Source: Tubulanus polymorphus
Taxonomy: Eukaryota; Animalia; Nemertea
Length of the DNA stretch: 64,000 nt
Assembly (NCBI RefSeq): GCF_964204645.1
Contig: NC_134029.1
Span: 15,122,950 to 15,186,949, forward strand
Reading direction: 5' to 3'
A model generated the notes under the pieces. It saw only the letters and a program-made list of their open reading frames with translations. It made no database searches and was not told where the DNA came from. A program made the position numbers and the translations under genes. Position 1 is the first letter of the stretch. Every line of letters begins with the position of its first letter. This document shows, piece after piece, positions 6,708 through 54,589 of this stretch.

Positions 6708-6794
6708 AGTAATTGGAAGATGTGGGTTTCATACCAGAGGTCGAAGGTCGACCACTCATCACCACAAGTAATTTTTTTTCCTTATAAATGGGAG
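6708..6794 (+). repeat. Left TIR of element A (87 bp)
   Basis: AGTAATTGGAAGATGTGGG...CCTTATAAATGGGAG is the exact reverse complement of 23811-23897. Confidence 0.95.
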
Positions 6795-7114
6795 ATAGAA
6801 AAGCATTCTTAGCAACAATAAATAACAGAATTAAACCAACAAAAAAACAATTTGAAATAAAAAAGTTAGTTGATGTTACAAAAGAAATTGAACATAAGAT
6901 ATTGAAATTAGAAAAGATAAAAACTAAATATGGAGAGAAAGTATCAGCTAATTTAAGCTACTGTAATGTTAGTACATCACGAGAATTTAAAGTGTTTTTA
7001 CCTGATAAATGGGTTTCATTGAGTACAGAGGAATTGAAAGATTTAGTAGGATTTAAAATAATATATCATGGGAAAAATGAAGACGGTCATCATGATTTAG
7101 AAATTGTTGATTAA
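6788..7114 (+). CDS. 108-aa basic terminal protein of unknown function (possibly OB-fold/ssDNA-binding)
   Basis: Intact ORF with TAAATG start inside the TIR; homologues at both ends of element C; TKYG...KVFLP motif; fold is inference only. Confidence 0.75.
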   Translation: MGDRKAFLATINNRIKPTKKQFEIKKLVDVTKEIEHKILKLEKIKTKYGEKVSANLSYCNVSTSREFKVFLPDKWVSLSTEELKDLVGFKIIYHGKNEDGHHDLEIVD

Positions 7115-7154
7115 ATAAAAAATAAAAATAATGAATATCTAGAATCCAAAATGA

Positions 7155-8093
7155 CCTTAGTCGTTTTATAAACAACTACAATCATACAGTCAAACATCTG
7201 TTACATGTTATTATAAGAGAGTGCTTCATTTGAATATTGATCAATCAAACAGGTGTTGCACAACGTTGTTGTTATATTGGATAGCTAGCAGTTATATAAT
7301 AAGCGCGCAGTACATACAACACACACAAGCCAGTTAGCCGGCATTGAACTACCACGTTTTCATTGGTTGCTGAAAGCGAGGTTTATTTAAATTAGCTCGG
7401 CCGTGACGACAGGAGGATAGTCATCATTCTCTCTCGTGATTAAAAGGAATATTTCAATGTTTTTACGGTAGTTTTAGCAAAACCACCCGACTTGACTCGC
7501 AGAGTTTTTAGGGGATAAGCATCCCGTTATTGAGAGGCGCCACGAGATACCTATCCCCAAGCATTTCTAATTACACCCCTGTGACCCACACCTCACCAAT
7601 TCTCCTTCAATGGTTGACAGGAAACACATTATATTAAAGGCGCCTAATGCATTTCCTATCAACCCCTTACCCCCGAAAGGAGGATCGAAAGTCGAAACTG
7701 AAGGAGAACCACGGAGGGTGGACAAAGGTGCATTTTCGAAATGCCCCTGCAAGCCAAGCCCGGCGGCACTCCAGTGGTTGAATGAATTGCCTTATATACT
7801 TAGCTAAAACACCTAAGTAAATGTTGTTGGTGCTAAAAAAATTTAAATTATAAATTATTCCGAATGAAAAGAATATAAGAATGAAAACTGATAAATGAAT
7901 TATGGATTTTTAACTTAATTATGATATAATTTTTAATCAAATTAGTAATCAATTACTATGTTAATTGATTAACAAATTCAAATTCAAATATTCATTTTAG
8001 CATCACACCCAGTGCTGCCATCTTTCAATTTAAAAAAAAACTAATAATAAGAAACGACTGTAATACAATATTCAAGTAAAAACAAAATAAATT
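7155..8093. other. ~940-bp foreign insertion in element A flanked by ~35-bp direct repeats
   Basis: AATAAAAATAATGAATATCTAGAATCCAAAATGAC (7121-7154) is repeated at ~8094-8130; absent from the matching place in element C; largely higher GC. Confidence 0.65.
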
Positions 8094-8116
8094 AATAAAA
8101 ATAATGAATATCTAGA

Positions 8117-8210
8117 GAATCCGAAATGACTTATCTGGACAATTTAATTGCTCCGCATAGATGGTGCCATAAACGGCACCCACACAGTGATAGACAAAAG
8201 TAGTGAGATA
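8117..8210 (+). promoter_or_regulatory. Conserved non-coding subterminal motif of the Polinton family
   Basis: GAATCCGAAATGACTTATCTGGACAATTT...GCTCC...ACAAAAGTAGTGAGAT also at 25544-25607, 55862-55927 (rc) and partly 36071-36099. Confidence 0.6.
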
Positions 8211-8257
8211 TTCAATTAATTAAAACAAATTATTTTTTTTGCTTTTTTTCTAAAATA

Positions 8258-8626
8258 TTAATCCATTTTTTTTATTATCAATTTTGGAATTTCAGAAGTA
8301 TTTTCATTTTTGAAAGCAGTTGTTTCAGAATTATTAATATCATGAATTTTATTTGATTTCTTATACCAATTACACCCAATCAAAATGAATACAATTACAA
8401 ATCCAACCGTAAAATATAGATATTTATCAAATATTCTATTATCAGAAGGAGTAGAAATAACAATATTTTCACCATTTTTATTAACATTTTTATTACTTAT
8501 TTTTTCTTTTACAGCTTTTTTATATTCTTGTGATTTAATTCCTAATTGCCGAGACCATTCAATTTGTTTCTGAGTTCTCGGTTTTTTCTTCACAGTTAAT
8601 TCCTTCACTTCTTTCACCTCGCTCAT
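8258..8626 (-). CDS. 122-aa basic protein with one predicted TM helix
   Basis: TAAATG start; hydrophobic YLYFTVGFVIVFILIGCNWY; homologues in B and C. Confidence 0.75.
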   Translation of the reverse strand: MSEVKEVKELTVKKKPRTQKQIEWSRQLGIKSQEYKKAVKEKISNKNVNKNGENIVISTPSDNRIFDKYLYFTVGFVIVFILIGCNWYKKSNKIHDINNSETTAFKNENTSEIPKLIIKKMD

Positions 8627-9163
8627 TTATTATAGAAAAATTTTTACTTTCAATATTTGAAAATGTTATAACCCCAGTTGATAATAATGTCATAAATCCA
8701 CCTAATTGAAATGATAAATATCCAATCCATTTATTTAATTCAGTCATAACTAAATAATCATTTTTTAAATCTGAATATAATCTATTTTCATCTTCAATTG
8801 GTAGTATATAATTACATAATTTACTATAACCTTTTACTACATTTTCTGATATCGCGTTATTAATTTTAGCTGTTCTCGCGGCTTCATAAATCTTAAATAA
8901 TCTAATAATTTCAACTGATTTCATTGTATCTAATTCATGATAAGTTAAATTTTTATCGACAAATTTTTTACATTTTCCAGATGCTATTAATATTTCTAAT
9001 TGATGTTTGCAATAAAGATAATATTCATAATTATTATTTGTTGTAACATTATTTAAAACACCATCATCTGGAATTAATTTGTTTTCTGTTATTCCTAAAT
9101 CATCTAAAGTTTTTCAATTGGAACATCACCATTTTTAGATTTTATCTTCTTTTCACCTACCAT
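8559..9163 (-). pseudogene. ~202-aa conserved Polinton protein (frameshifted near 9115)
   Basis: Matches the intact ORF 54905-55513; one base missing in a homopolymer. Confidence 0.8.
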
Positions 9164-9179
9164 TTATATAACAAAAAAA

Positions 9180-9445
9180 TTAGTTGTGACGTTGCAACTA
9201 GAATTCAACTAGAATGTAACTAGAATTCAACTAGATTAACAAGCTAGTTGAAATATTGTTGTTTTTGTTTATTTCTTGTTAAATCTAGTTGATTTTTGTT
9301 TCAACTACTAACAACTAGAATTCAACTAGAATGTAACTAGATTTAAACTAGATTAACAAGCTAGTTAAAATATTGTTAAATCTATTTGATTTTTGTTACA
9401 ACTACCAATAACTAGAATTCAACTCGATTAACAAACTAATTGAAT
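9180..9445. repeat. Intergenic array of ~11-bp CAACTAGAATT-type repeats
   Basis: Repeated AACTAGAATTC/AACTAGAATGT/AACTAGATT units; counterparts at 54590-54880 and, degenerate, at 25620-25830. Confidence 0.8.
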
Positions 9446-9447
9446 TT

Positions 9448-10054
9448 AAATAAATTCATATTTAAATGGGTGTTGTAATCTAAATAGTAATTTTGATCTT
9501 TTAATATTTTTCAACTTATCCATATATTCATTATGTAAATCATATGGAATAATATCATTTTCCTCAAGTGCATTTTTCATCGATTTTCTATCTTTATTGT
9601 AGAATAAAACTAGAAATCTAATGTTTTCTCTAAAGTCTTTAACAATTGAATTATATTTTTGATTTAAAACCCAAGTTGTTATCCCAAAATGTCTCCCAGA
9701 GAAAGCTAAATAGCATAACTCACTTTCTCTAACTTTTGAATCATGTAGATTAGCACAATCATCTATAATGAATAATGTATTTGATCCTTTATAAATATCA
9801 ATTGCTATTTTAATACAATTATCTCAATTTTCTTTTACTGTTTTAGGATCTAATACAATAAATTTATTATTCCTAGTAATATTTCTATTATAAGTTTGAT
9901 TAAATTCATATGTTGGACAAAATAATACTATATTATTAAAATAGTTTTCATAAACAGTTTCTGATAAATTTAATATAAAATAAGTTTTTCCACAATTTGT
10001 TACGCCGGATATTAACATATTATGAGGCTCGAATATAAATAATTCTTTATTCAT
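9448..10054 (-). pseudogene. A32/FtsK-like DNA packaging ATPase (in-frame TGA at 9824)
   Basis: Walker A GVTNCGKT, Walker B LFIIDD, GRH motif; the intact copy in C has Leu at the stop. Confidence 0.9.
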
Positions 10055-11182
10055 TTATATATTTTTAATTTTACTTGATAATATCCATTCATTGAATTTA
10101 TCTGGGCGTCCAACCCATTTTACTAAAGAATATTTTTTTCTTTTAATAGTTTTTGTTTTTAATACTTTTTCAAATTTATATTCTTGTTCTAGATTTTCAG
10201 TAGTTAAACTTAATTCTTCTTCGTAAAAGTAGCCATCAACTTCTTCACCATCTAAATCTTCTAATTTATAGACATATGGTTTTGTTGTTATTACCTTTTT
10301 TATTTTATATATTTCTCTAGTAAAATTTCGATCGTATCCTTTATCAAATATCTTTTCATACTTAGAAATTCTAACATTTTGACCAACTTTAAATTTAGGT
10401 TCACCAAAATCATCTACAAGAAATGCTCCATATAAATTATTCCAAACAATTTCAGCATTTTCAGGTTTTCTAGCATCAATAGGTTTCATTCCAATAGAAG
10501 AATGATAAGAATTATTATATCCTTCTATCAATTTTGGTAAAACATCTATCCATTTAAAAGTATTATTTGCTGTAAAATATTTCCACATTCTTGTTCTTAA
10601 TGTTCTATTAAATCGTTCAACGACTGCTGCTTTTTTATCCGATTTTGTTGAAAAATATTTAATATTATGATTATCTAAGAGTTCATGAACAAGTGAATTA
10701 TCAAACACTTTTCCATCATCAAATTGTATTTTTTCTGGTTTTAGTTTATCATCCGAAAGAAATTTTCTTAAAACATTTGATGTTTGTACAGCATCTTTTC
10801 TATAAAGTGGGAAGCTCCATACGTAACGACTAAAAATATCAATTATATTCAATAACCACCAATAATCATCATTATCTTTCTTAACATTTTTCATATCAAT
10901 TAAATCTCCTTGCCACTGTTGATCTACATAACTTACCATAGTTTTACGAGTTATATATTTTCTAACAATTTTTTTATGTGTTGTATATGTTGGTTGTTCT
11001 AACATAAATTCATTTATATCTTTATATTTAACTAAATTTTGTGGGATTATCTCATCTAATTTATCTTGTTTTACTTGACACCATATATTTTTAGTAGAAG
11101 AATAAGCAACTGAACTCTCAGGGTTGTAATATAAATTTCTAAAATATTGTTCTTTAGTATTAGGAGTTTTTTTACCACCCAT
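10055..11182 (-). CDS. Retroviral-like (RVE) integrase with C-terminal chromodomain
   Basis: WQGDLID, IDIFSRY, QFDDGK, VERFNRTL (DDE triad); chromo-like EKVLK...LVKWVG.PDKFNEWI. Confidence 0.95.
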   Translation of the reverse strand: MGGKKTPNTKEQYFRNLYYNPESSVAYSSTKNIWCQVKQDKLDEIIPQNLVKYKDINEFMLEQPTYTTHKKIVRKYITRKTMVSYVDQQWQGDLIDMKNVKKDNDDYWWLLNIIDIFSRYVWSFPLYRKDAVQTSNVLRKFLSDDKLKPEKIQFDDGKVFDNSLVHELLDNHNIKYFSTKSDKKAAVVERFNRTLRTRMWKYFTANNTFKWIDVLPKLIEGYNNSYHSSIGMKPIDARKPENAEIVWNNLYGAFLVDDFGEPKFKVGQNVRISKYEKIFDKGYDRNFTREIYKIKKVITTKPYVYKLEDLDGEEVDGYFYEEELSLTTENLEQEYKFEKVLKTKTIKRKKYSLVKWVGRPDKFNEWILSSKIKNI

Positions 11183-11212
11183 TTATATATCCTTAATTTT
11201 AACTTTATATTT

Positions 11213-12460
11213 CTAATATTGAATACTATCTAACTGTGAATTTACAATATTTAATTGCGCGTCAGATATAATATAAATATGCATTTTGAAATTTTTGTCC
11301 CCTTTTTTCTTCGCCATGAATAATTGTATTCCATCTTTAGTGTTTTGTAATTTTTTTCCAGAACCATGTAATGAATTATCCTCTGTTGTTCTAAAATCTA
11401 ACCATAATGCATATTTATTGCCGGTATAATAATCAATTTGATTAATATTACAATTTTCTAATGATTTTACTTTTTCATTCATAAAATGTTTTCTAATTTC
11501 TGGCCACTGATCTATCATTCTCATTCCTTGGCAAAATATTTTATTTGCTATTCCTTCGATAGTTATTTCTACTTTTGTTATTTCAGGATTATAATAATTA
11601 TCTACCTTTATTGCACCATTAAAATATGTTGCAATGGTAAAAAATATTAATATACCTTTAATAGATCTTCTTGGGAAGTTAATATTCTCATTAATTATTT
11701 CATCATTTGCATTAATAGTTACGGTTTTAAATTTATCAATATAATCATATAATAATGAAAATCCTTGATTGTATTGAGTTTGAATTGTGCTAGCAATATT
11801 TTCATTAGTTACTGTGTTATATTCTAAACATATATTCGATAATTTATAACCCATATCTTTAACAACGCTAGATAATACAATTTCATTTACAGGAGCAAAT
11901 GTTATCTCAAATATAATATCTTCTTGAATTGCGTATTTATATAAAGGTGCATTATTATTTATCAATTCAAAATCTAATGGAATTTTATATTTGCTTCCAT
12001 AAATCTTTTTAATCAAATTATCTGTGGCACGAGTTACTATTGCGTCATTAGCTCCTGATCTTAATTTATTATGGTTTTCCGATTGGATGCCTTGAAATAT
12101 CATATTATTTCTATTTTCTTTAGTTAACCATAAATCTTTATAATGCATAAATAAATAATAATCATCTAATGAGAAAACTGTTTCCGGACCAATCTTTATA
12201 GTTAATTTTTTAATCAAATATCTTCCAACATTATCGACAACATAATTATTATCATGACCAGTTACTTTTATATCAGCTGATAAATAAATACTATTTGGAA
12301 CATAAAAAGTATTTTGTGTTAATCTAGGAATTCTAACATATAAAGTTTCATCGGCATTAATATTTGAAGGGTTATTAGTAATTATATGATGTGATCTTTC
12401 TGCTTTAATAGCATTAGATATTCTAGAAATCTTAGAAGGACTTATATAACTCCCACTCAT
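11213..12460 (-). CDS. Major capsid protein (double jelly roll), 415 aa
   Basis: Size, beta-rich pattern, YALWLDFRT..D..LHGSG motif typical of animal Polinton capsid genes; next to integrase and ATPase. Confidence 0.8.
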   Translation of the reverse strand: MSGSYISPSKISRISNAIKAERSHHIITNNPSNINADETLYVRIPRLTQNTFYVPNSIYLSADIKVTGHDNNYVVDNVGRYLIKKLTIKIGPETVFSLDDYYLFMHYKDLWLTKENRNNMIFQGIQSENHNKLRSGANDAIVTRATDNLIKKIYGSKYKIPLDFELINNNAPLYKYAIQEDIIFEITFAPVNEIVLSSVVKDMGYKLSNICLEYNTVTNENIASTIQTQYNQGFSLLYDYIDKFKTVTINANDEIINENINFPRRSIKGILIFFTIATYFNGAIKVDNYYNPEITKVEITIEGIANKIFCQGMRMIDQWPEIRKHFMNEKVKSLENCNINQIDYYTGNKYALWLDFRTTEDNSLHGSGKKLQNTKDGIQLFMAKKKGDKNFKMHIYIISDAQLNIVNSQLDSIQY

Positions 12461-12480
12461 TTATTTAACAAAAAACTTAA

Positions 12481-13916
12481 TTATTTATTTTTTATTATTT
12501 TTTCTTGATATCTTTTTGATATCATATTCACTAACCCAAAAATAATAGCACTTACAACTGTAATTAAAAATAAAATAATATGTTCAGCAGCAAAGTTAAG
12601 AATATTCCCAGCAGATTTCAATATAAAACCAACAATTGATGCAATAATTCCTGGTAATGCTGCAGCAGATTTTTTAGATAGTTCCCATAAATATTTTGCT
12701 AATTTCTTTAAACCATCCTTAACTTTATCTTGTATAGAATTATTGCCTGGAGGTTTATCTGGTTTATTGGGAGTGGGAGTAGGAGTAGATTTTAAAGCAT
12801 TTGATATAGCTAAACCTATTGTTGTAAATAACATAGTTACAGCTGTTAGAATTGAAAGAATTGTTATTCCTTCTAATTTAAATAATAACTTTATTCTATC
12901 TTTTAATGATATTTCAGAATTTTTTTTAATCTATTAATATTATAATCATATGATTTTAATAATAATTTAATTTCTTCTTTCTGTACTTCTAAATTATCTT
13001 TTAAATTACTAATTTCTTTTTCTAAACGTAATTCTTTTTGCCTATATTCTATTTCATCAATTACTTGATGATGTAAATCAGACTTTATTTGTTCTATTTC
13101 TTTATTTGCATTAGTTAATTCTTTTTCCAAATACATAATTTTTTGATCTCTTATACTTTTATTATGTGCAATTTTATCAGATGCAAGTCTTATACTAATA
13201 ATTTCTCTAATTGCTTTATCAGAAAATATATTTAAATCTTCTAATTCTTGATCTGTTGCATCGAGTAATCCATTCGGTAAAAGTTTTTCAATTGGAACTT
13301 TATTTGATTTAAGTTTACTATTTTTGGAAGTTTTATTCTGTTCAGAAGTTGTTTCTGTTTCTGATTTCTTTTTGATTATTTTAAATAATTCATTAATTCT
13401 TTGTTTAAATACGTCTATATTATCATCTATTTCTTTTTGTGTAACATCAGTTATTTCATTACTAATACTTATTCTCTTAATTCTATCTGGATCTAAATCA
13501 CTCAAAGTTGATTTTGTTAATATTTTATTTTTATTATTTTTATGAGTGATGGCAATATAATAATCATCTTTCAAATGATAATAACATTTACCATCATCTA
13601 AAAATTTTAATTTATCTACTAAAGGTCCGACGTCTTCATCATTTATGTTAAGTTTAGAATTTTCAATTAAATCTTCTAATTTAGCTATTTTGTTTAAATT
13701 ATCTAAATCTTGTTTTACTAAATATGGGTCTAAATTTTCGGGATTTAATTGTGATTCAGCATTTTTAATATAATCAGGCATATTCAAATTATTATTATAT
13801 TCTGGCTCATTACCAACATTAAAACTTGTTTCATCAAAATCAGGTGGTTGTTCATCAGTTATACCAGGTTCATCAAAAGGATCCATTCCAATATCTTCTC
13901 CACCTTCTACATCCAT
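12481..13916 (-). pseudogene. Large acidic/coiled-coil protein with C-terminal hydrophobic (TM) segments, frameshifted near 12905
   Basis: ORFs 12903-13916 and 12481-12834 join; long heptad region then LSILTAVTMLFTTIGLAI and IILFLITVVSAIIFGLV. Confidence 0.75.
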
Positions 13917-13932
13917 TTATATAATAAAAAAA

Positions 13933-15234
13933 TTAAAATTTAAAATATAATATTCCTCCTATAACAATTCCTATACAAGTTAAAGCTAATTTAGTATTTT
14001 CATGTAATTTATTGTCATTATCAGTTTTAATTATATTATGTTGAATATTATCAGTTTTAATATTTTCTGATGTACTATAATCTTTTATTTTAGAATCATT
14101 ATTTAATTTAATATTCTTAGTTTTAGTTTCAGTTGATTGAATGTGTTTTTTAATTTTTTCGCCTTCCATTAATTTTGGAGCAGTAATAATCTTTTTATTT
14201 ATATCATTCAATCCAAATGAATTATTTATTGTTGCAGTTTTAATTAGATTATTATAACCAATTATATTTCCCATCTTTAATACTAAATCATTAGAAATAA
14301 TTAATAGATTAGGGCCTGTACAATAATTAAGCCTTACATGAGATTTATCTGAATAATTTTGATATCTTATAATATTTTCTGGAATCGATCTATTTTTATC
14401 ATTATGAATTGAATCTTCAAATAATACTTTGAATTGTTTCTGTGCATCGAATGAAGTGTTATCATTTCCAATTATTGGGGATCTTGTTTCAACTTGTGCA
14501 CCTAAAATACATATCAAATAAATTCTAATAGATTGATTTATTCTTTGTATACCTGATTTTGTAAAACCTTCACCATTTTCTAAAATGAAATTAACCCAAC
14601 CATTATTATTATCAATTTTATAATTATGATAAGCTGAAATTCTATGCATATTATCAATTCTTTTTATTTCAAACTCTTCACCAACACCTTGCAATTTACC
14701 ATGCGCTCTGAAATCGGAATTAATATTTATATTAAATTCATTACATATTTTATAAAACTTAGATATATTAATATTATTATCCAATTCTTTAAACTATTTA
14801 GACCCGGGTAAAGGACATTCTAATTCATTTAATATTATTCTGATTTGAAAATATGTGTGAAATCTAAATATTGTGTGAATTAATTTTAAATCAGAATACT
14901 TCAAATTTTATCTAAGCTATTTAAATGATTATTCCAACTTATTCCACATCCTGTTGTTGCACAATAAACAGCAAAATCTAATTGGTTCTGCCAATATTTC
15001 ATATTAGATTTTACTTTATATATATGATATTCATCTCGAGTAAAAGTAACTTCATATGTATTAAATATATTTTCCATTTTAGAAATAAAAAAACTGTGAT
15101 TCAGTAACATAAATTTCTAAATTAGTTAATGAATTTAAAACTACATTTTTATATGTAATATTTTTCTTAAAATCTATTGCCGGAATATTATATTTAATTG
15201 ATTTATTATATTGGACAGCTTTTGGAAACCCCAT
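13933..15234 (-). pseudogene. ~433-aa conserved protein (YWQNQLxFAVYCATTGCG motif) with C-terminal TM anchor
   Basis: TAAATG at 15234; two compensating frameshifts and one TAG; ends LALTCIGIVIGGILYFKF; homologue at 48753-50357. Confidence 0.75.
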
Positions 15235-15250
15235 TTATATAACTAAAAAA

Positions 15251-15685
15251 TTAATAATTAACTAATTCTTTTAATAATTTATCTTGTTCTTCAACTGTTA
15301 TATGACCATTTAAACTTATGATATAATCTAGTGTGTTCTTTAATTTATTAATTTCTTTTATATTAGTTTTAATTTTTTCTTTATTACTTTTTATATTTGA
15401 TTTTGAACTTATACCGGTTAAAACACTTGAACTTAATCCTAACACACCAATTGATATAGCTAAAGGTGTTAATGGACTGAATATTGCTAAAAATGTTATT
15501 ACAGAACTAATTGTAACCGAACCACTTATAATCAAATAATATATAATTTTACTTTTTAGATATTTTTTCTTTTTAACTTTTAAGTCACTTTCAAATTCTA
15601 ATATTTGTTTTTCTAAATATGTTTTTAATTTAGTTTTATTTATATCATGAGGAATAATATCAATACTATCAACTTTATCTTCCAT
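15251..15685 (-). CDS. 144-aa coiled-coil protein with two TM helices
   Basis: IIYYLIISGSVTISSVITFLAIF and LAISIGVLGLSSSVLTGI; homologue at 48305-48736. Confidence 0.8.
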   Translation of the reverse strand: MEDKVDSIDIIPHDINKTKLKTYLEKQILEFESDLKVKKKKYLKSKIIYYLIISGSVTISSVITFLAIFSPLTPLAISIGVLGLSSSVLTGISSKSNIKSNKEKIKTNIKEINKLKNTLDYIISLNGHITVEEQDKLLKELVNY

Positions 15686-15705
15686 TTATTTAGCAAAAAA
15701 AATTA

Positions 15706-16128
15706 CTAATTAGTAAATTTATATGCTACAAATATAACAATAACAGTTCCACCTAAAATCCATATTATTTCATATTTCTTCTGTTCATTACTTGGGGTAT
15801 AATAATCTGATAATTTAGGTTTGTATAGATGTAATTTTTCTTTATTAGTTACCGCGTTATATAAACTCATTGCATCATCGACTGATTGAAAATCTCTATG
15901 TGAAATCTTCTGATCATATAATTCTTTGTTAATATAATCCATATAGTTTTGCCTCTTTTCTCTATATTCTTCTGCAGCTTTATTATATTTCTCTAACGCT
16001 AAGTTATGTCTTCTTTGTTCTCCTAATGAACTATTTTTATCAATATGTTTAAATAAATAACCACCACCAGTAAATGCTAAAGCGTTAACAATTGCCGATC
16101 CTATAATAGTTATAATTGCAGAAGCCAT
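15706..16128 (-). CDS. 140-aa protein with N-terminal Gly-rich hydrophobic segment and C-terminal TM
   Basis: MASAIITIIGSAIVNALAFTGGGYLF...RHNLALEK...IIWILGGTVIVIFVAY. Confidence 0.8.
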   Translation of the reverse strand: MASAIITIIGSAIVNALAFTGGGYLFKHIDKNSSLGEQRRHNLALEKYNKAAEEYREKRQNYMDYINKELYDQKISHRDFQSVDDAMSLYNAVTNKEKLHLYKPKLSDYYTPSNEQKKYEIIWILGGTVIVIFVAYKFTN

Positions 16129-16152
16129 TTATTTAACAAAAAAATTATGTAT

Positions 16153-16374
16153 TTATATGGGAGGAATATATTTTTGTTTTTCCAAATAATCAATTGTTAA
16201 ATTAGATAAAGTAACTGCTAATGTTAATTTTAAAATATCATTTATATCAAATCTATCAACATTAACACTTCCCATTTTGAATACTTTTTTTAATACCATT
16301 GAATAAGCAACAGTTCCAACTGATAGTAAGGCGCCATTATATAATCCAGTTATTATCCACTTATTATCACTCAT
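16153..16374 (-). CDS. 73-aa small hydrophobic (membrane) protein
   Basis: TAAATG start; two hydrophobic helices; homologue at 47618-47838. Confidence 0.75.
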   Translation of the reverse strand: MSDNKWIITGLYNGALLSVGTVAYSMVLKKVFKMGSVNVDRFDINDILKLTLAVTLSNLTIDYLEKQKYIPPI

Positions 16375-16377
16375 TTA

Positions 16378-16731
16378 TTAATCAAAAAAATTACTATCTT
16401 CAAAATATTTAGTTATCTTATTTATGATTAATTCAACATTTATTTTATTACTAGTTTCATTTGTATATATTTCAATTATTATTTTTTTAATATCATCGAT
16501 GATAAAATCTTCATCTAATTCATAAAATCTTAAAGGTTCTCTAATTAAATTAGTAATCTTTTCTATATTTAAAGTTTCTTTATCTATTGTTTTTTCATAC
16601 TTAAATGTTGTTTCATTAGAAAATGCAATATTTTTGATTTGTGTAATTACATCATTAATGTTAAATTTCATTTCTTTCTCACGTTTAAAATCAAATCCAA
16701 AACATATACTCGGTCCAACAGTTATATTCAT
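16378..16731 (-). CDS. 117-aa hypothetical Polinton protein
   Basis: TAAATG start; homologue at 47262-47614. Confidence 0.7.
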   Translation of the reverse strand: MNITVGPSICFGFDFKREKEMKFNINDVITQIKNIAFSNETTFKYEKTIDKETLNIEKITNLIREPLRFYELDEDFIIDDIKKIIIEIYTNETSNKINVELIINKITKYFEDSNFFD

Positions 16732-16747
16732 TTATATATCAAAAAAA

Positions 16748-17549
16748 TTACTCTTTACATCTTATAACTAATTCATATATCACAGGAAAATTATTCAAAT
16801 CAATTAAATAACCATTATGATTTCTTATTTCTAATTTAGAATTATTGAAATGTGGAATACAAGGTTTAAAATCACATTCAGCTAAATTATAATTTATTTG
16901 CGTTCCAAATTGTTTAACGTTCTTCAATGGTAAAATATTTAATATACTAGAATTACATGTTGTATCTTTAGTTGCTTCGAATGTTTTTGTAGGATCGATT
17001 AAATTGCAATAAATATAAAAGTGTGTAAAAGGTATTATATTTGAGTTACCGTGTATGTTTACACCAATAAAATTATTTGGAGTAATTCCTAACAGTTTAG
17101 CTATAGGTTTTTTTTACCGTGTAAGTATGTCTTCTTGTCATCATTACATCAGATTTAACAAGTTTAATAAGTTCATCATCAAACTTTATTTTAATTTTAT
17201 TAGAGCTCTCACTTTTTATGAATTTAATATTAAATTTAGAATTACCATTACCTAATCTAATCCGAGCTTTTCTATTAATTTCTTGCTCTAATGTTTCTAA
17301 ATTATATAATCCTGGTGTAAGCATAAGTTGAATCCATTTTTTTTCAAGTTTATCAAAAATAAGAAGGCTTCTATGTTCATCAGTTTTATCTGATATATTG
17401 TAAAATGAGTTACATAAACTTATATTTACTAATTTTAAATCAACACAATTCTAAAATTCTCTATCTAATTGAACTAGTAAATTATGAGATTTATAATTTG
17501 TAAGTCTTCTAGAATCAACAAATATTCTGTATTCTTTTAATTCTACCAT
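16748..17549 (-). pseudogene. Penton (minor capsid protein, single jelly roll)
   Basis: Reconstructed: IFVDSR...SFYNI...PGLYNL..L...LLG...FYIYCNLID...ILNILP...LEIRNHNGYLIDLNNFPVIYELVI; one stop and one frameshift. Confidence 0.8.
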
Positions 17550-17617
17550 TATTTATAACATAAAAAAATTACCTCTCATCACTAAAAATTAATTTTAATA
17601 AAATTTTTCCTAAATAA

Positions 17618-18930
17618 ATGGATGAGAAGATAGGATGTGAAATTTGTGGTGAACTTCTAAGAAAAAGTAATATGGCTCGACATATGAAAAAACATGATGA
17701 AAATTATAAACCCCCTAAAATAAAATGTCCAAAATGTAATAAATTATTCTCAAGAAATTATGTTAAAAAACATTCAGAGAAGTGTAGAATTAATGGCGCA
17801 ACGGCTAATTTTGATAGTAATGAAAGTAATAGTAATTCTGCTGAAGTTGAACCTGAAGTTATTTGGAAAAGACCTTTCTTATTCTATGATAAGGATAATA
17901 TAAAAGATCATTTCTGCGAACCTTGTCGAATAAAATATAGCCCTGAAAATATAGAAGATTGGGAGAAACATCAATTTCGTAAAGTACATATAGATAAAAT
18001 TTCTAATAAATTTGAAACTGAATTTAATGAAAGAAAAAATAATTTATTAGAAAAAATAAAATATGAGAAAACGTTACCAGATAATGAAGAAACAGTTGAA
18101 AAGTTAGAAAAACAATATAATGAATTAACAAGAAAAACATATTATTGTAAATATTGTAAATTGATTATTACAACAAGTAATTATAAATCTACATGATAGA
18201 ACAATAAAACGTAAGAAAATACCAAGAGCTTAATAAAGATCTATTACCAATAAATTATAAACAAAAATGCCCACAATGTATTTATGCGACCTTAAGACAA
18301 GAGGGTACTGAGATATTTTGTGTTGATGTTGATTGTGGATGGCGAAAGAATTTATGGGGTGGAGAAAAAACTAGAAAATTTCCCTTAGAACCAAAATTAG
18401 ATTATCTAGATGAAATTTTTAGAATATTTTCTATAGAAGATCATACACCAGAATATATGCAATGGCTTGAAAAAATGAAAATAATAGAAAATAAAAATGG
18501 TGAAATAACTAAAAAAGATATTATAAAAACAATTATTCCACCAACATTTAACACAAAACAAAAGAAAATGTATTTATATTTATTATTTAACGATTATTAT
18601 GAAAAACCTAAATTAACAGAAGAAGATATGGAAAATATAAAAAAAATATTCGAACAAATATTATTGTATTATTTGGAAAATAGAATAACAGATTCAATAA
18701 ATTATGAATTCTTTTTAAATAAGATTACAAATTATTTAAACATCGATATTATAATTCCATTTGATGAATTAACAAACAAAAAGAAACAAAGAGAGCGAGA
18801 TGAAATGTGGAACAAGATAGAACTTTATTTAAATAAGAAAAATGGAATGGAAGAAGAACCTGAACAATTAAATGAAAATGAAGAAGCCAATAGTGATTTC
18901 GAGTATGATGATATTGATTTTATGTTTTAA
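17618..18930 (+). pseudogene. Multi-C2H2 zinc-finger protein with acidic tail (frameshifted near 18190-18220)
   Basis: CEIC..H, CPKC..H, CEPC..H..H, CKYC; homologue at 45155-46576. Confidence 0.75.
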
Positions 18931-21900
18931 TGACCATAAGGTAATGTTTTTATACCATCATCTAAAATATGCCTTTTATCATCAAATGGATTTAAACTAG
19001 TTTTTTTCAACTTCATTAATGTACATCTCATGATCTTCTGATCTTAAACAATTCATTTTGTGTTTCATTACAATTGATTTATATAAACACTTTATATAAT
19101 CTTGAAATTCTATATGTTTATCAACCACATGTTTTGTTATTCCTTTTAACTTTTTAGCTTCATGATCTTTTGTTCTGTAACTATACATTTTACTTCTTAT
19201 CCCAACAAATTCAATCATTTCATCACCCCCTAATTCATTTTTAAATTTACCAGGAATCTTTTTATTATCATTGCTAAATAGTTCATGATCTTTGGGATAA
19301 TTGCTAAAATCAAAATGATGTTTTAATGTTTTTAAGTCTTTTGTTATGTCATTTGTCTTGATTTTTAGTATGTAGGTGTCCGTATTTTTGGCTATTAATG
19401 GAAATCCACAGTTAAATGTGCCATCTTCAGTTGATAAATCATAAACATAATCTGTTGGGTTACATATTTCAAATAAATCTTTAACTTCTTCTGTTAACTC
19501 ATTTTCTACATGGCTTAAATTAAAGCAATTTGGTTTAGATTTAATCAATCCAATATTCATATTAAAACCTAATGAATTGCATAATATATTTAATCCTGAT
19601 ATAGCAACTTTTCCTTTTTGAGCTAAAGATATTGTTTTGCGGTTTTTGAAACTTTTAGTACCATCTGCTGCGTAGAATCCAATGAAGAACCATTTTCTTA
19701 AATTATCTTTTGCATTTAATGCATAATCTGGAACTATCTTTTCTTTTGTTGAAGTATTACTTTTAACTATTGCATGAATATAGAATTCATCATTATATTT
19801 TATAGCAAAATCTTTAGGATTATTTACAAGTATTCTATAAACTGCTGTTGATTTCATATGATCCACGATTCTAAATATTTTATGTGAATAAACTTCTTCA
19901 CAAAATTTCTTTATTCTTTCTAATAATTTTAAGTCTTGATTGCATAAATACCAGCAATATTGAGTGCGATTAACATAATTATACACACCTGCTGAACCAT
20001 CACCCATGAAAAATCCTTTGATAAAATATTTCTTTTTCTTCTAATGTTTCGGGTTCTATATTATAAATATTATCAATAATTTCATCAAATGACATATGAT
20101 TCATTCTTTGGAAAAATCTTTTATGTAATAATTCATCTCCAATTTTTATATCAGTTGGTTTTATTTCATCGCCATTTCGTTTAATTAAACTATGATCTTC
20201 TGTAACATCTACAAATCCTAATTTAGTTCTAACTCTATAGATTTTCTTATTTGTTTTATGTCTAATAATATTCTTTAATTTTTTCCATCCATTTCTTGTC
20301 CAAACATCCATTAAACCATTTATTTGTATTAATTCTTTTTCTCCATATGAAATATAACATTCATTTTGTTTTGGAATTATTTCTGAAATTCTTCTTATCA
20401 ATATTTTATCATTACATTTTAATAATATTGGGGTGTCAGCTGTTACAGAATCAAAATATAATATTTCAATATGCTTTTCCCCAAAAAGTGGTTGTAAAAC
20501 ATTATAATAAAAATCATACATTAATAATTTTGATACTTCTAAAACAGTCGAACCAATAAATATAGGTTTATTAAATTTCATTGATGTTCTTTTTAATTTA
20601 ACTGCTGTTAAATAATCTTCAAATCTTTTATTTCCTAAATGTCTAGGACTTGATTGTAAATGTCTTAATCTTTCAGAATTATTCACTAATTCAATATCAT
20701 TTCTATTTCTAATATTTTCACATGTTTTACCATAAAAACTATTATTCATTAATTTGAAGAAATCTTTTTCAAAATCTGTTTTTGATATTGTTCTCTGTTG
20801 AGTATTGAAATCTATATATTTTTCTAACCACTTCGATTGATTAAATTCAATATATCTATGTACTTTCTTTAATTTCATTCCTTGTTTTAGATAAAATTTT
20901 AACATTCTATAATGAACAATATAATTGTATTTATTATTTTGAGTAAGTATTAATTTTTCTGTAAAAACATGATCTTTCGGTTTTATTTTCTTCTGGTATT
21001 CACTTAAATAACTATCATCTACAGTTAAATGTTCTGGGCAATAAGGTAAGTTTCTTGTTTTAAACTTTATATTTTCAGGATATTCTAAATCAACTACAAA
21101 GAAATAACCAATTGGTGCTTCATCTTTTAAACTCGCAATTGCGCTTTCCCAATCAGTTTTATCACCATTTTCAACTTCTGTTAATATAAAATTTTTATAT
21201 GGTTGAGGTTGCATCATTGCCCAACCATATAAATTATTGGCATCAATATATAATGATTTATATTCATCATTTGCTTTAAAATATCTATCTCCCATAACAC
21301 CACTAATTCCACCTCTAATTGATTTTTCAAATAATAAAATCATATCTGGTTCTTTTAATAAATCTAATTCTACATTTGTATATTTTAAACCACATTGCCA
21401 GGTTAAACCAGGACTAGAGTAGCAATAACAAGGATCAACATTAAAATGATTCAAATTAACTTCTCTAAATTTTTCAAATATGTCAGCCAATATCATAACA
21501 TCTGATTTTAAATATAAATCAACTAATTCACCATGATTTTTCATCTTAAAATGGTTCCAAATATTTAATGTTCTATTAAACACTTCGTCTTTCACATACT
21601 CCTCTTTTAATTGATCATAAAATTGATCTTTCAATAATTCTGTTACATTAAAATCATTGTGTGTTTTATAAAATGAATAAGGAATTGCGCCTTTATATCT
21701 CAATAATTTAAAATCTTGTTCATTTGGATAATAATATCGAGTTATAACAAAATCATTATCAACTAAACTTTTTGATAAATTATCTAATGAACTTGCTAGA
21801 AATCTATAAGAATCTAAAAATCTAATGCAACCAAATTGAAATGAAATATAATTTTCAGATGTTTTAGCTAATAGTTTAAAATCATATTTTCTTACATTTG

Positions 21901-23817
21901 CTTCATTCATAGCATTATATTCTTCTATTTCTATGAATAAAAACGTTTTTCACAATAACAACAATGAGTTGCATAATTAAAATCAATTTCATCTTCTTTT
22001 GTCATAACTATTCTTTCATTTTTGTTTAATAATTTTGCAAAATCACTTTCTAATTCAATCATTTTATCACAAAAATCATTAACTACATTTTCACCTCTAA
22101 AAGAAATATATTGACTTTCATATAATTCGGGATAATTTGATTTTATATAAATTCAATAAGCAGCAGCTCTTTGATGAACTTTTTTAATTGTATTTATAAT
22201 TGGTGGGTCTTGTATTGTGTCTTCATTTAATTCATTTCCTTTATCCATTGATTTTAATAATTGCTTTTTGTTATATATTTCTTTTCTATCTTGATCAGTT
22301 AATTCTTTATTCAACGATTCAAAATCCCCATAAATTACAAATGGAACAATATTCTTAAATTTATGATTAGTAAATTTCAATTTATAATCTTTTTCTGTTG
22401 GCATTATTAATTTACAAAAATCTTTATTATCACATAATTCTTTATGTTTTAATAATGTATTCTCAGTCATAAATTTAGATAAACATTTTCTACATAGATA
22501 AATTTTACGATGATGATCACTTTCTGTTCTAAAGAATAAATCAATTTGTTTTAACCACATATAATGTTCATTTTCATCTTTTTTATAATATAACAAATCT
22601 ATAACATTTTCATCATCATAATATTCTGTTAAATATAAAGCTTCCAATGTATAATCTTTAATATTTTCACCTTTTGTCTTTGGTAATTGCATTAATTCGA
22701 ATACATTTATTTTTAAATTATTAATTTTTTCTATTTTAGGAATCATTTTTATAGTTACTGGATATTGATCAATTTTATATAATGTTTCATATTTCCGGTA
22801 ATTTGTTATTCTAAAACTATGTGTCATATCTTCTGTTGGGTGTAAGCAACTAATAATTGACCATAGAAAACATTTATTATCTTCATTTTGAACATTTATT
22901 ACTGCTTTTGTTGTAAATGGTAATTAAATATAAGATGATGCTTTAATATCCTTTTCTGTTGTAAAGTTTGAATCATTTTTAAACATTTTATTACTTTTTG
23001 ATGTTTTATTTCTTTTTGTATTATAAACATTTAAATCTAAATATATAATTTCATTCAATGTTAAGCCAGAACCCTCAAAATATCTTTCTTCAATATGACG
23101 TTTAAATTCATTAAAGATTTTTTCTAACTTCTCTTTTATTTGTGTTTTTGAAATTATTTCTTCAGAGTGTGTTTGAATATTATAATTCATTTTTTCTTCT
23201 GACTTTATAAAACTTACTTTCCCAGAGATACTAATTTTTGGATATTCAACACCTGTTATCAAATCTAGTATTTTTTCTATTATTTCATTAAATTTACTAT
23301 AATCTTCTATTGTTGTACCTTTAAAAAATCTAAATATAATAGCTGCAGGACCAATTTTACTATGTAATGTTTCTAAAATTTCAATTGTATCTTTTATTTC
23401 TAGTGAATCAATATAATTTCTAACATTTTCCATGTAAGGTTTATTTGAAATGGATTTAGTTTTTGAAGTTGATTTTTTTACTTGTTGAGGTTTATTATCA
23501 AAATATTCTGATCCTAAAACATTTTTATTTAAATTTTTATAATGTTTTTGTGATTCGAGATGTCTATTATAATTCCTTTTTACTATAAATTCATTACAAA
23601 CTTCACATTTTATTTCATCCACATTCATATTTTCTAATCGTTCTTTTCTTTCATTGGAATTTTCTGGAGTTTCAAAATCTATTACATCTTTTATATGATT
23701 TGCAGATTTTTCATGTCGTGATTTTTGGGATTTATCGATGTATTTTTTACAATATTGACAATAATATTGATTTTTATTAACATTATTGTTTTCTGGTTGG
23801 TGTTCATTTCCTCCCAT
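18927..23817 (-). pseudogene. polB: Protein-primed family B DNA polymerase (pPolB) with N-terminal zinc fingers, containing an intein
   Basis: YGDFES (ExoI), RFLDS, YLKSDV (ExoIII), SIRGG, YIDANNLYG (motif A), KLMNNSFYGK (motif B), YFD|TDT (motif C), KMYS, KLKG; several stops, frameshifts and a deletion. Confidence 0.95.
19384..20449 (-). mobile_element. Intein with LAGLIDADG homing endonuclease in PolB motif C (~355 aa, one frameshift at ~20030)
   Basis: N-terminus SVTADTPILL, block B VDVTEDHSL, LAGLIDADG blocks FIKGFFMGDGS and FFIGFYAADGT, block F/G YVYDLSTEDGTFNCG...IAKN followed by Thr; removal restores ILYFDTDT. Confidence 0.93.
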
Positions 23818-23897
23818 TTATAAGGAAAAAAAATTACTTGTGGTGATGAGTGGTCGACCTTCGACCTCTGGTATGAAACCCACATCTTCCAATTACT
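23811..23897 (-). repeat. Right TIR of element A
   Basis: Perfect inverted copy of 6708-6794; contains the pPolB start codon. Confidence 0.95.
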
Positions 23898-35624: not shown

Positions 35625-36100
35625 AGTATTTGGAATATCAGGGTTTCAGGCCAGAGGACGAGAGGACGACACACCACTCATCAACACAAGTAATTTTTTT
35701 CTAATAAATAGGAGATAGAAAGGTATTCTTAGGAACAATAAATAACAGAATAAAACCAGCGAAAAAACAATTTGAAATAAAAAAGTAAGTCGATGTTACA
35801 AAGGAAATCGAACACAAAATATTGAAATTAGAAAAGGTAAAAACTAAATATAGCGATAAAATTTCAGCAAATTTAAGCTACTGTAATGTTAGTACAACGC
35901 GAGAATTTAAAGTATTTTTACCTGATAAATGGGTTGCATTGAGTACAGAGGAATTAAAAGATTTAGAGGGATTTAAAATAATCTATCATGGAAAAAATGA
36001 AGACGGGCATCATGATTTAGAAATTGTTGATTAAAAAAATAAATTGATAATAAAATCAATCAAATATTAAGAATCCGAAATGACTTATCTGGCCAATTTG
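35625..36100 (+). repeat. Left long TIR of element C, including a copy of the 108-aa gene (pseudogene 35708-36034)
   Basis: Inverted match to 55897-56372 from AGTATTTGGAATATCAGGG through GAATCCGAAATGAC...CAATTT. Confidence 0.9.
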
Positions 36101-38229
36101 ATTGATCGAGGCGCTGACGAGAACAGTCGATTGCGTTGTGCTGTACAGTGAGTGCGCGTAACAACAGCTGCGCTTGGATAGATCGACGCGGCGAGGCATT
36201 GACGAGAACGGTCTACAGTGCGTTGCTATATATAGTAGTACAGTGATTGTGTACCAGCTGCGCTCGGATAGATCGATGCAGTGAGGCACTAACTGAGACG
36301 GTTTATTGCGTGTTTGTTATACACGGGGGGAAGGTGACTGCACTCGGATGGTCCCGGTTCATTTAATTGTTTCAAAATAGATATATTGTTTAATGAATTA
36401 AAATATTTTTGCTTTTTATAATCACTCATCACTACAAGTAATTTTTTTTCCTAATAAATGGGAGAGAGAGAGTTCCAGACAGAAAACAATGATGTTAATG
36501 AAAATCAATATTATTGCACGTATTGTAAAAAATACATTGATAAATCTAATAAATCTCGGCATGAAAAAACTGCAAATCATATAAAAAATGTTATAGATTT
36601 TGAAACTCCAGAAAATTCCAATGCAAGAAAGGAACAATTAGGAAATATGAATGTGGATGAAATACAATGTGAAGTTTGTAATGAATTAATAGCAAAAAGG
36701 AATTATAAAAGACATCTCGATTCGCAAAAACACAAACAAAATTTAAGTAATAATGTTTTAGGAACAGATTATTTTGATGATAAATCTCAACAAGTGAAAA
36801 AACAGTTTCAAAAACTAAATCTATTTCAAATAAACCTTACATGGAAAATGTTAGAAAGTATATTGATACTCTAGAAATAAAAGATACAATTGAAATTTTA
36901 GAAACATGACGTAGTAAAATTGGTCCTGCAGCTATTATATTTAGATTTTTTAAAGGAGCAACAATAGAAGATTAAAGTAAATTTATTGAAATAATGGAGA
37001 AAATACTAGATTTGGTAACAGATGTTGAATATCCAAAAATTAGTATTTCTTGAAAAGTAAGTTTAATCAAATCAGAAGAAAAAATGGATTATAATATTCG
37101 AACACACTCTGACGAAATAATTTCAAAAACACAAATAAAAGAGAAATTAGAAAAAATATTTAATGTATTTAAACGTCATATTGAGGAAAGATATTTTGAG
37201 GGTTCTGGTTTAACATTGAATGAAATAATTTTTTTTAGATTTAAATGTTTATAATACAAAGAAATAAAGCATAAAAAAGTAAAACAATGTTTAAAAATGA
37301 TTCAAACTTTACAACAGAAAAGGATATTAAAGCAACAAGTTATATCAAATTACCATTTACAACAAAAGCAGTAATAAATGTTCAAAATGAAGATAATAAA
37401 TGTTTTCTATGTTCAATTATTAGTTGCTTACATCCAACAGAAGAACATGTTTATAGAATAACAGATTACCGGAAATATGAAACATTATATAAAATTGATC
37501 AATATCCAGTAACTATAAGAATGATTCCTAAATTAGAAAAAGTTAATAATTTAAAAATAAATGTATTCGAATTAATGCAATTACCAGATACAAAAGTTGA
37601 AAATATTAAAGATTATACATTAGAAGCTTTATATTTAACAGGTTATTATGATGATGAAAATGTTATAGATTTGTTATATTACAAAAAAGATGAAAATGAA
37701 CATTTTATGTGGTTAAAACAGATTATTCTTTAGAACAGAAAGTGATCATCATAATAAAATATATCTATGTAGAAAATGTTTATCTAAATTTATGACAGAA
37801 AATGCGTTACTAAAACATAAAGAATTATGTGATACTAAAGATTTTTGTAAATTAATAATGCCAACAAAAAAAGATTGTAAGTTGAAATAACTAATCATAA
37901 ATTTAAAAATATAGCTGCAAAGCAGCGATAACGGGTTTTCTGCACAGTCTTAGAATCCTGTTCAACGGTGGATTTCGACATAGCATTTTATAAGGCACAA
38001 CATCAGCCATTACTAACTAAACAGGCTATTAGGAAACAGTATCAATGATAGGTCGCCCAAATGGCTCAGCAGTTATCTCTGAACGAAAACTTGTAGCCGA
38101 AATCAACGGAACGCCTCATTTTGGAATAAGTCGGTCTAACTAGTGTAGTCACGCAAGGTAGTATCCTAGGTCGTCTTCTGTTTAATGTCCTGACAAATGA
38201 CATACACAGTAATCTAAAATATACCAGAC

Positions 38230-38811
38230 CGAGTAAATTTCCCAAACGAACTTAACACGCTGTTCGACCAAAAACTTAATGTTCCGACAAGAAAATCGTG
38301 TTCGAGTGAAAACAATTCAGTTTGGTTGAACAATACGCTTTTTTTGAACCAAAACTTTCTTCATTCTGACAAAAAAATATGTTCGAATGAAAAGCTATGT
38401 AATTGTTGAAATGAAATCTTTTTGTCCCGGCAAAAAGATTTGGTTGAGCAAAAACAATTTTTTCGACCGAATGTTTGAATGAAAACAATTCTGTTCGATT
38501 GAACGAAATACTTTTGGTTTGGAGAAAAAACTTTTTACAATATACTTGTTCGAATGAAAAACTTAATGTTCTGACAAGAAAATATTCTGTTCAAATTAAA
38601 ACGATTCTGTTTGATCGAACGATTGTTCGAACGAAAAACTTTTCGTTTGGAAAAAAAAAGTTTGTTCAACTTTGTTCTAACGATTTTTCAAATTGGTTCA
38701 ATCGAAAAGAATATTATTGGTTGGAACGAAATAAATTTTGTTCCGACGAAAGAATTTTCAAGCGAAAAAGGTCTTTTGAACGAAAAAAAGATATTTCTGG
38801 GGCTCCGCAGT
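38230..38811. repeat. TTCGA-rich short-repeat MITE-like sequence
   Basis: Numerous TGTTCGA/TCGAAC units, low complexity. Confidence 0.45.
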
Positions 38812-38814
38812 AAC

Positions 38815-39139
38815 TTAAAGCCGGACGTAGGTCGGCCTTGTGACGCGATGCGATCCTCGCGTTGCATCGCAAGTTTTGGTGCAAGTCGGTTGCGATACGA
38901 TTGTGTGCAACTAGTTTCAACCAGTCGCAAGAGCGCGTAGGTCGGTTGTCACAGGCGTGTCGCGTCGCAGAAAGTAGAACACGTGTGACTCCTTGAAACT
39001 GGCGATGCTGACAGTCGCAACCCTTCGCAAGGGAGCGTAGGTCGATGAGTCGTTGTGACACAATCGTCGCTGGCGGTCGCAGTGAATGGCGTCGCAGTGA
39101 GTCACAAGCCGTCGCAAAGCCGACCTACGCCCGCCTTAA
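38815..39139. mobile_element. MITE (PIF/Harbinger-like)
   Basis: TTAA-AGCCGGACGTAGGTCGGC...GCCGACCTACGCCCGCC-TTAA inverted termini, GTCGC-rich interior. Confidence 0.65.
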
Positions 39140-44703: not shown

Positions 44704-45154
44704 ATAGATGCTTACATACTAAAAATCAAGACAAATGACATAACAAAAGACTTAAAAACATTAAAACATCATTTTGACTTAAGAAATTATCCAAAAGATC
44801 ATGAACTATTTAGCAATGATAATAAAACAATTCCGGGTAAATTTAAATATGAATTAGGGGTGATGAAATGATTGAATTTGTTGGGATAAGAAGTAAAATG
44901 TATAGTTATAGAACAAAAGATCATGAAGCTAAAAAGTTAAAAGGAATCACAAAGCATGTGGTTGACAAACATATAGAATTTCAAGATTATATTAAGTGTT
45001 TATATAACTCAATAGTTATGAAACATAAAATGAATTGTTTAAGATCAGAAGATCACGAGATGTACATTAATGAAGTTGAAAAAACTAGCTTAAATCCATT
45101 CGACGATAAGAGACATATTTTGGATGATGGAATAAAAACATTTCCTTATGGCCA

Positions 45155-46576: not shown

Positions 46577-46644
46577 TTATTTAGGAAAGATTTTATTGAA
46601 ATTAATTTTTAGTGATTCGAGGTAATTTTTTTGTGTTATAAGTA

Positions 46645-47243: not shown

Positions 47244-47261
47244 TTTTTCCACTACATAAAT

Positions 47262-48736: not shown

Positions 48737-48752
48737 TTTTTTTATTATATAA

Positions 48753-54587: not shown

Positions 54588-54589
54588 AT

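Follow-up and report, generated by a model that had tools for sequence, protein, structure and literature searches.

The window (the whole 64-kb stretch of DNA that was analysed) contains two copies of an intein, each lying within the protein-primed polymerase (pPolB) gene of an integrated Polinton. The two Polintons, designated A and C, and the genes assigned to element A were located as follows:

6708..23897, minus strand: Polinton element A (17.2 kb), ending in AG...CT, with a TIR identical over 88 bp and the 6-bp TSD CACTAG
9446..9823, minus strand: A32-like packaging ATPase, fragment (Pfam Pox_A32, E 4e-5)
10055..11182, minus strand: retroviral-type integrase (Pfam rve, E 3e-9)
11213..12460, minus strand: predicted double jelly-roll major capsid protein of element A (ESM Atlas look-alikes, 0.97-0.98)
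18208..18930, plus strand: VLTF3-like ORF adjoining the polymerase (Pfam Pox_VLTF3, 26.4 bits; cut-off, 25)
18930..23817, minus strand: element A pPolB gene (Beta/group-1 type) with ~4 breaks (tblastn with the intact homolog P0003)
35625..56372, plus strand: Polinton element C, rearranged, with ~480-bp inverted repeats and the TSD CACTTG

Several features by which Polintons are recognized were present, namely, TIRs, a 6-bp TSD, pPolB, an rve integrase, and a packaging ATPase. Element A is complete between its TIRs and TSD and carries pPolB, integrase, and ATPase, which bears out the placement of the intein in an endogenous Polinton by the preliminary description. An intact counterpart of the ATPase fragment was found at 53979-54587 (Pox_A32, E 4e-12). 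The capsid ORF (11213..12460) had no match in Pfam, and some of its ESM Atlas look-alikes carry the Capsid_N, Capsid_NCLDV, or DJR family at a low member share. Pfam searches of the window proteins identified neither a penton nor a protease. A VLTF3-like ORF, preceded by a zinc-finger ORF, lies beside the polymerase in both elements (18208-18930, plus strand; 45331-46416, minus strand); VLTF3 is a giant-virus late transcription factor family, and these ORFs possibly represent a second gene link to Nucleocytoviricota.

Element A sits inside an L2-like LINE fragment (6315-6728 and 23691-24535), and a near-complete LINE ORF2 occupies 418-3172. A third Polinton remnant at ~25500-35700, which is more diverged (~70% identity to element A in the N-terminal part of the polymerase) and lacks the intein site, is broken up by Penelope elements at 28522-29838 and 32216-33325. 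Insertions within elements A and C were located at 7156-8080, 37913-40745, and 41047-42817, and the polymerase of element C contains an 888-bp tandem duplication (99% identity). The flanks contain L2-like LINE, Penelope, and gypsy remnants, and retroelements of these kinds tend to have a metazoan bias. No host gene, tRNA, or credible Rfam family was identified within the 64-kb window, and six window proteins gave no match in exact look-ups. What bears the intein is a viral gene, the pPolB, lodged in a host chromosome and not an animal gene, and the Polinton intein family likely resides in animal genomes. A non-animal host, such as a repeat-rich alga or another protist, appears quite improbable in view of the retroelement remnants, of the animal-restricted virion proteins of adintovirus-like elements, and of a close intein-bearing homolog filed under a clam-symbiont bin; it would take away the animal setting and leave the Polinton intein as it is.

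Motif C of the element A pPolB (YFD/TD; slashes mark intein boundaries) is interrupted by a 1066-nt insert at 19384..20449 on the minus strand. The features of this insert and of its counterpart in element C were as follows:

19384..20449, minus strand: intein copy A, PolB-c type, with a Hint domain and a two-motif LAGLIDADG endonuclease (junctions, profiles, and empty allele in reads)
20192..20203, minus strand: block B, TEDH, intein residues 83-86 (motif reading)
19996..20025, minus strand: LAGLIDADG motif 1, FIKGFFMGDG, catalytic Asp retained (motif reading)
19660..19689, minus strand: LAGLIDADG motif 2, FFIGFYAADG, catalytic Asp retained (motif reading and Pfam)
19384..19446, minus strand: blocks F and G, VYDL ... 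FNCGFPLIAKN, with terminal Lys-Asn, then Thr+1 (motif reading)
43655..44703, plus strand: intein copy C, decayed, with many frameshifts and stops and the +1 nucleophile gone (comparison with copy A)

On the minus strand, the N junction reads ...HIEILYFD/SVTADTP at 20449, within an ORF (20000-21949) in which pPolB motifs A and B precede it, and the C junction reads ...TFNCGFPLIAKN/TDTYILK at 19384, within a second ORF (18997-20040) in which the polymerase resumes. One frameshift near 20.0 kb spreads the intein over these two ORFs; Ser1, TEDH, FIKGFFMGDG, FFIGFYAADG, VYDL, Lys-Asn, and Thr+1 are all kept. The profile TIGR01445 (intein N-terminal region) matched the insert from the junction onward, beginning at its residue 2, with 31.5 bits against a cut-off of 24.5, and Pfam LAGLIDADG_3 matched inside the insert with 33.3 bits (cut-off, 22.5). 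PF14890 exceeded its cut-off in the homologs P0005 and P0006. Upstream of the insert, a match to Pfam DNA_pol_B_2 (E 1e-16) identified the extein as a pPolB and not an RNA-primed Pol-delta-like PolB.

The best PDB sequence match was PI-PkoII (E 2.5e-9), and an AlphaFold model of the intact homolog P0005, in which the intein blocks mostly had pLDDT values of 85-98, matched the TliVMA, PI-PfuI, PI-PkoII, and PI-SceI inteins (E 4e-16 to 1e-12). The residues of a class 1 intein were found: Ser/Cys1, the block B TxxH, the block F Asp, the terminal Asn, and Ser/Thr/Cys+1. The penultimate residue is Lys and not His, as it is in 130 of 262 related inteins. Copy A and all 11 intact homologs keep the acidic residues of both LAGLIDADG motifs. 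The insertion occupies a conserved site for which precise empty alleles exist, and it is in frame in intact homologs and frameshifted in copy A. The insert was thereby confirmed as an intein with a LAGLIDADG domain in an endogenous Polinton pPolB, and the split motif C and the intein features claimed in the preliminary description were recovered in the junctions and in both profiles.

The second copy that had been reported at 43655-44703 lies at exactly that position, but its C-terminal junction is degraded, reading ILLN/IDA without a +1 nucleophile, and Cys stands in place of the Tyr of YFD. Copy C is 1049 nt long and 90.0% identical to copy A over 1042 aligned nt, with nine frame-changing gaps separating the two. 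The flanks of the two copies are 94.8 and 93.0% identical, so that the intein is not the more alike. Both window copies are dead relics of a Polinton intein family.

Occupied and empty alleles were sought in X6, a raw genomic run with the same species label, of which ~12% was read and in which reads were counted at 85% likeness. In 35 X6 reads, which begin at 23 different points, 19374 and 20450 are linked by 9 other letters, for a net loss of exactly 1066 nt and the product YFD/TDS. Three further reads and one contig (run X1) had the same net 1066-nt loss. Since the empty reads lose exactly 1066 nt, the intein boundaries are independently confirmed. The summed X6 depth was 144-259 within the intein versus ~215-510 in the flanking bins, and ~150 reads span the occupied junction. 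By our own very rough estimate, a quarter to half of the family-like copies are empty, a proportion to which sister subfamilies may contribute at 85% likeness. The +3 residue is Ser in the empty reads and Thr in copy A, and the empty reads may come from a sister subfamily rather than from the same one. The frameshift of the window was not shared by 178 of the 225 reads over it, so this break is not typical of the family. The copy number is given only as "many" because all flanks are repetitive and single-copy depth cannot be calibrated. A junction of 20828 with 19394 occurs in three reads, and other internal intein deletions occur in several, consistent with decaying copies. Contig sets presumed to derive from RNA contained nothing across the intein, which speaks neither for nor against its expression. 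The survey for intein-minus alleles called for in the preliminary description thus found, among the reads, precise empty alleles coexisting with occupied ones.

Inteins at the same site were found in pPolBs belonging to 14 clusters at 90% identity (P0003-P0007, P0016, P0067, P0182, P0183, P0187, P0190, P0192, P0195, and P0358), and for several of these the contig is between 50 kb and 1 Mb long. The count of 1 intein in 78 site-bearing homologs is not a frequency, as a size limit left out full-length intein-bearing proteins. The P0183 cluster has 136 members, and of the 15 listed, the intein is intact in 7 and absent from 6. P0170, which matches the P0004 exteins at 97-99% identity, is an empty allele; the window's pPolB gene has an empty relative in P0282 (85% identical), and empty near-copies were also found for P0183 (P0410-P0415) and P0358 (P0376). 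Near-identical occupied and empty alleles therefore coexist in at least four Polinton families, the window's included.

No Polinton locus with context was obtained from viral contigs with the window intein piece, P0004, or the capsid as a probe or from prokaryote genomes with P0183. Among 155 viral and metagenome loci, none matched the pPolB or capsid probes and 133 matched the RNA-primed PolB (rPolB) probe. Because these scans gave no Polinton context, the 14 other pPolB-intein clusters are known from proteins alone, without neighbourhood or host. Some pPolBs are filed under bacterial names (P0187, P0286, P0289, and P0345; a Thiodiazotropha bin from a clam, Sulfurimonas, and Bartonella), with the Thiodiazotropha and the listed Bartonella records on contigs of <3 kb; these are probably host contamination. 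P0187, from the clam-symbiont bin, is a close intein-bearing homolog.

In searches with the intein, the best 150 of 528 representatives comprised 126 rPolBs, 4 topoisomerases II, 2 pPolBs, and 18 unassigned proteins, and the best 120 of 2517 matches included 106 rPolBs and 11 pPolBs. The viral label of most of these rPolB rows derives from motifs and a BLAST probe, with names supplied only by GVMAG contigs and ChoanoV1: GVMAG-named contigs made up 9 of the top 12 among 75 viral loci, and one named match was Mimiviridae sp. ChoanoV1. The pPolB-family intein is 30-42% identical to giant-virus-type inteins and, in keeping with a PolB-c allele, combines the YxD/TD site with highest similarity to viral PolB-c inteins. 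An Atlas look-up returned generic LAGLIDADG/intein clusters of mixed taxa. Prokaryote genomes yielded 16 loci, all partial or distant. Phages gave no match for the C-part and four partial matches for the N-part, and a phage origin was ruled out on these grounds. The YGD of P0003 was considered as a trace of the donor and dropped, since YGD is present in empty alleles too. These comparisons support giant-virus-type PolB inteins, and not bacterial or phage inteins, as the nearest relatives outside Polintons; the clustering with bacterial or phage inteins that the preliminary description named as evidence against its proposed origin was not seen.

Members of the same intein family were also present at motif B (SAN/SMY) and at a second motif C position (DTD/S) of viral-type PolBs, as well as at two topoisomerase II sites, and some PolBs carry two copies (alternative-site members: P0017, P0018, P0022, P0028, P0113, P0128, P0014, and P0032). 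The family changes sites readily. A 185-aa mini-intein at L156:5001-5560 lies in a viral-type PolB whose contig, filed as a Saccharimonadales bin, is probably a mis-binned giant-virus contig.

Phylogenies were inferred with IQ-TREE from 57 rows subsampled from 266, with near-copies and fragments left out and Mimivirus's own intein absent. The 13 pPolB rows, including both pieces of the window intein, formed one clade (100/100). In a rooted tree of 49 rows, with 8 archaeal PolB-c inteins as the root, this clade fell within a 26-row viral-type clade (97/89). It was sister to the ChoanoV1/GVMAG marine clade in the 57-row tree (80/92, unstarred), a relationship that the rooted tree did not resolve and in place of which FastTree gave other sisters. 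The best tree favours transfer from NCLDVs to Polintons. The proposed jump from an NCLDV PolB into a pPolB thus fared well in the nesting of the best trees, but a sister position of the pPolB clade, outside all viral-type rows, survived the AU test (p=0.113). That result, together with the long stem leading to the pPolB clade (0.39-0.46), would also suit parallel inheritance by Polintons and giant viruses or entry via some other group of viruses or a polymerase of eukaryotic cells; inteins of cellular Pol alpha/delta are described for Anaeramoeba in the accessible text of PMC10710043, and the trees were built without them. We regard such another direction or donor as unlikely, given the starred support for a pPolB clade nested within viral-type rows in the best trees, the far greater number and diversity of viral-type inteins, and a C-terminal F-N-[CST]-G-x-x-L common to all 13 intact pPolB inteins and 67 of 249 other inteins, ChoanoV1 included.

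Within Polintons, intein identity among Beta pPolBs (46-70%) is roughly equal to flank identity (39-78%), which makes the intein an old resident of these polymerases. The Alpha-type P0007, compared with Beta pPolBs, is 17-32% identical in the flanks and 44-55% identical in the intein, and its intein clusters with that of the window's lineage (97/88; keeping it outside gave AU p=0.04), which indicates a lateral gain by this Alpha pPolB. Intein presence is scattered over an extein tree built from non-randomly sampled rows, 14 of them occupied and 34 empty: it needs 11 changes against a shuffled mean of 12.3, and at least 9 presence/absence changes are forced. Copies of P0183 are 95-99.7% identical in the intein versus 98-100% in the flanks, and no recent sweep was visible in copies A and C or in these copies, the intein being no more alike than the flanks. 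The matching divergence of intein and extein fits vertical descent with losses as well as it fits ongoing homing. It does not agree with a single recent jump into this virus and points instead to an old, widespread Polinton lineage, which corrects the preliminary description.

Among 66 intein-free relatives, the +1 residue is Cys in 22 and the +3 residue is Gly or Ala in 24; in the trees, each of the 13 intact pPolB inteins is followed by TDS. Motif C shows unusual variability in P0408-P0415, P0292, and the 66 intein-free pPolBs (YMDCDS, YIDTDG, YFDTDA, YGDTDA, and YTDCDS). In pairs that are at least 95% identical elsewhere (21 pairs from 10 proteins, mostly of one family), 341 sequence windows were compared, and the eight with the lowest conservation overlap the intein site; P0408 and P0414 are identical elsewhere and 67% identical at the site. 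Site-focused divergence among empty alleles was present in three of nine clusters and absent from the other six. As a lead from homologs and not from the window itself, this variation at the target might reflect escape from the homing endonuclease or conversion tracts.

Alternatively, the intein might have entered Beta pPolBs once, as an element that still splices and has lost homing, with its patchiness produced by repeated precise loss. Intein and extein identities that track each other across Beta families, the same three deep groups in the intein and extein trees, and the absence of signs of a recent sweep agree with such a history. It nevertheless appears quite improbable, because the endonuclease catalytic residues persist in all 11 intact homologs, which are 44-70% identical, the extein tree forces repeated changes, the intein reached an Alpha pPolB (P0007), and empty alleles in some clusters diverge at the site. 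A chimeric assembly or chance motif match, for which the broken state of the window copies in a very repetitive region might speak, has virtually no likelihood and is already refuted, since two independent insertions, each with its own TSD, carry the intein, an independent run has reads along its whole length, and intact homologs and precise empty alleles exist.

The preferred reading, which we consider probable, is that of a full-length homing intein in motif C of the Polinton pPolB, self-splicing if intact and likely homing, that derives from an old transfer from Nucleocytoviricota. It draws on the anatomy, the exact boundaries, the coexisting alleles, and the single pPolB-intein clade among giant-virus-type inteins. 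The precursor would be translated whole, and an intact intein would excise and rejoin YxD to TD. By standard intein chemistry, an acyl shift at Ser1, aided by the block B Thr/His, would be followed by transesterification onto Thr+1 and then by Asn cyclisation, restoring YxDTD. The LAGLIDADG endonuclease would cut intein-free YxD/TD alleles, and repair off an occupied copy would convert them; targets would be supplied by tens of Polinton copies per genome or by co-replicating elements. The RNA-primed PolB of a member of Nucleocytoviricota would have passed the intein once, long ago, to a Beta-type pPolB. Intein and polymerase would then have diverged together for a long time, with losses and renewed homing recurring within subfamilies, and at least one further jump would later have reached an Alpha-type pPolB. 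For a giant virus to be the source, both genomes would have had to share one cell, presumably through co-infection; in insects, Polinton-like viruses have turned up together with entomopoxviruses, according to the accessible text of PMC11296320. A further-reaching reading is put forward tentatively, as a possibility that we lean slightly against: animal genomes may hold live self-splicing homing inteins that were captured from giant viruses, long kept in Polinton polymerases, and drawn into an escape race at +1 (Thr to Cys) and +3 (Ser to Gly/Ala).

Large DNA viruses, prokaryotes, fungi, protists, and plastids are the sources from which inteins have been described. The preliminary description correctly equated the insertion site with that of the Mimivirus PolB intein, which in the accessible text of PMC549080 is a 351-aa intein at position III (PolB-c) with Ser1, Asn, and Thr+1. 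The PolB-c inteins of Mimivirus and other Nucleocytoviricota, as far as the accessible text of PMC549080 and PMC5784728 describes them, resemble the present one in the motif C site, the length of ~350 aa, Ser1, the Thr/His of block B, two LAGLIDADG motifs, the terminal Asn, and Thr+1. They differ in the extein, which is a Pol-delta-like polymerase in those viruses and the pPolB of a 17-kb integrating element here, and the pPolB inteins form a clade of their own whose nearest viral rows are marine (ChoanoV1 and GVMAGs), in a comparison that did not include Mimivirus's own intein. Archaeal PolB-c inteins, PI-PkoII, PI-PfuI, TliVMA, and PI-SceI share the Hint and LAGLIDADG fold, and archaeal PolB alleles share the site (YGD/TDS), but structural identity is 12-18% and the outgroup branch measures 2.8 changes per column.

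The carrier element resembles the Polintons/Mavericks (adintoviruses), with their Beta and Alpha pPolB classes, in its AG...CT TIRs, 6-bp TSD, pPolB, rve integrase, ATPase, and predicted capsid, as these are given in the accessible text of PMC8502044, PMC10748475, and PMC11071308. In contrast, the pPolB insertions known from that text consist of nuclease domains of the HNH and VSR types, for which no splicing domain is reported; they have been suggested to derive from intein invasions, with a splicing domain not shown (PMC11071308). According to the accessible text of PMC8502044, virion proteins of the adintovirus type seem to be confined to animals. Eukaryotic nuclear inteins, known from fungi, Anaeramoeba, and endogenised giant-virus PolBs in algae (PMC5784728, PMC10710043), are likewise nuclear and of virus-linked origin, whereas here the carrier is a multi-copy transposing virus; the hosts listed in the accessible text of these surveys are fungi, protists, plastids, and NCLDVs, with no metazoan among them. 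The words "hint," "LAGLIDADG," and "homing" are absent from the accessible text of PMC10748475, as is "intein" from that of PMC8502044, and inteins or homing endonucleases are treated only generally in the accessible text of PMC12220804, PMC13768754, PMC5718144, PMC3671162, PMC9939771, and 10.64898/2026.10.13.758929. Full-text searches of the open literature on Polintons, Mavericks, adintoviruses, and pPolB yielded no description of such an intein, and the novelty claimed for a Polinton intein stands within that literature; an annotation in supplements, subscription papers, or Repbase is conceivable. The PolB-c kind of intein itself was already known; a Hint-containing intein in motif C of a pPolB appears to be new.

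The surveys, in their accessible text, include neither an animal host nor a protein-primed polymerase. The Polinton family represents a probable case of inteins in animal nuclear DNA. Homing would here have crossed the deepest split of the family B polymerases, from RNA-primed to protein-primed enzymes, and then passed from Beta to Alpha pPolBs, and the intein may serve as a tracer for Polintons that share cells with giant viruses. Because homing needs an expressed extein and reachable empty targets, its persistence would imply replication of these Polintons and recombination among them. The probable animal setting would also make these mesophilic inteins a potentially practical resource, and the families with both alleles make the cycle of invasion, decay, and loss testable within single genomes.
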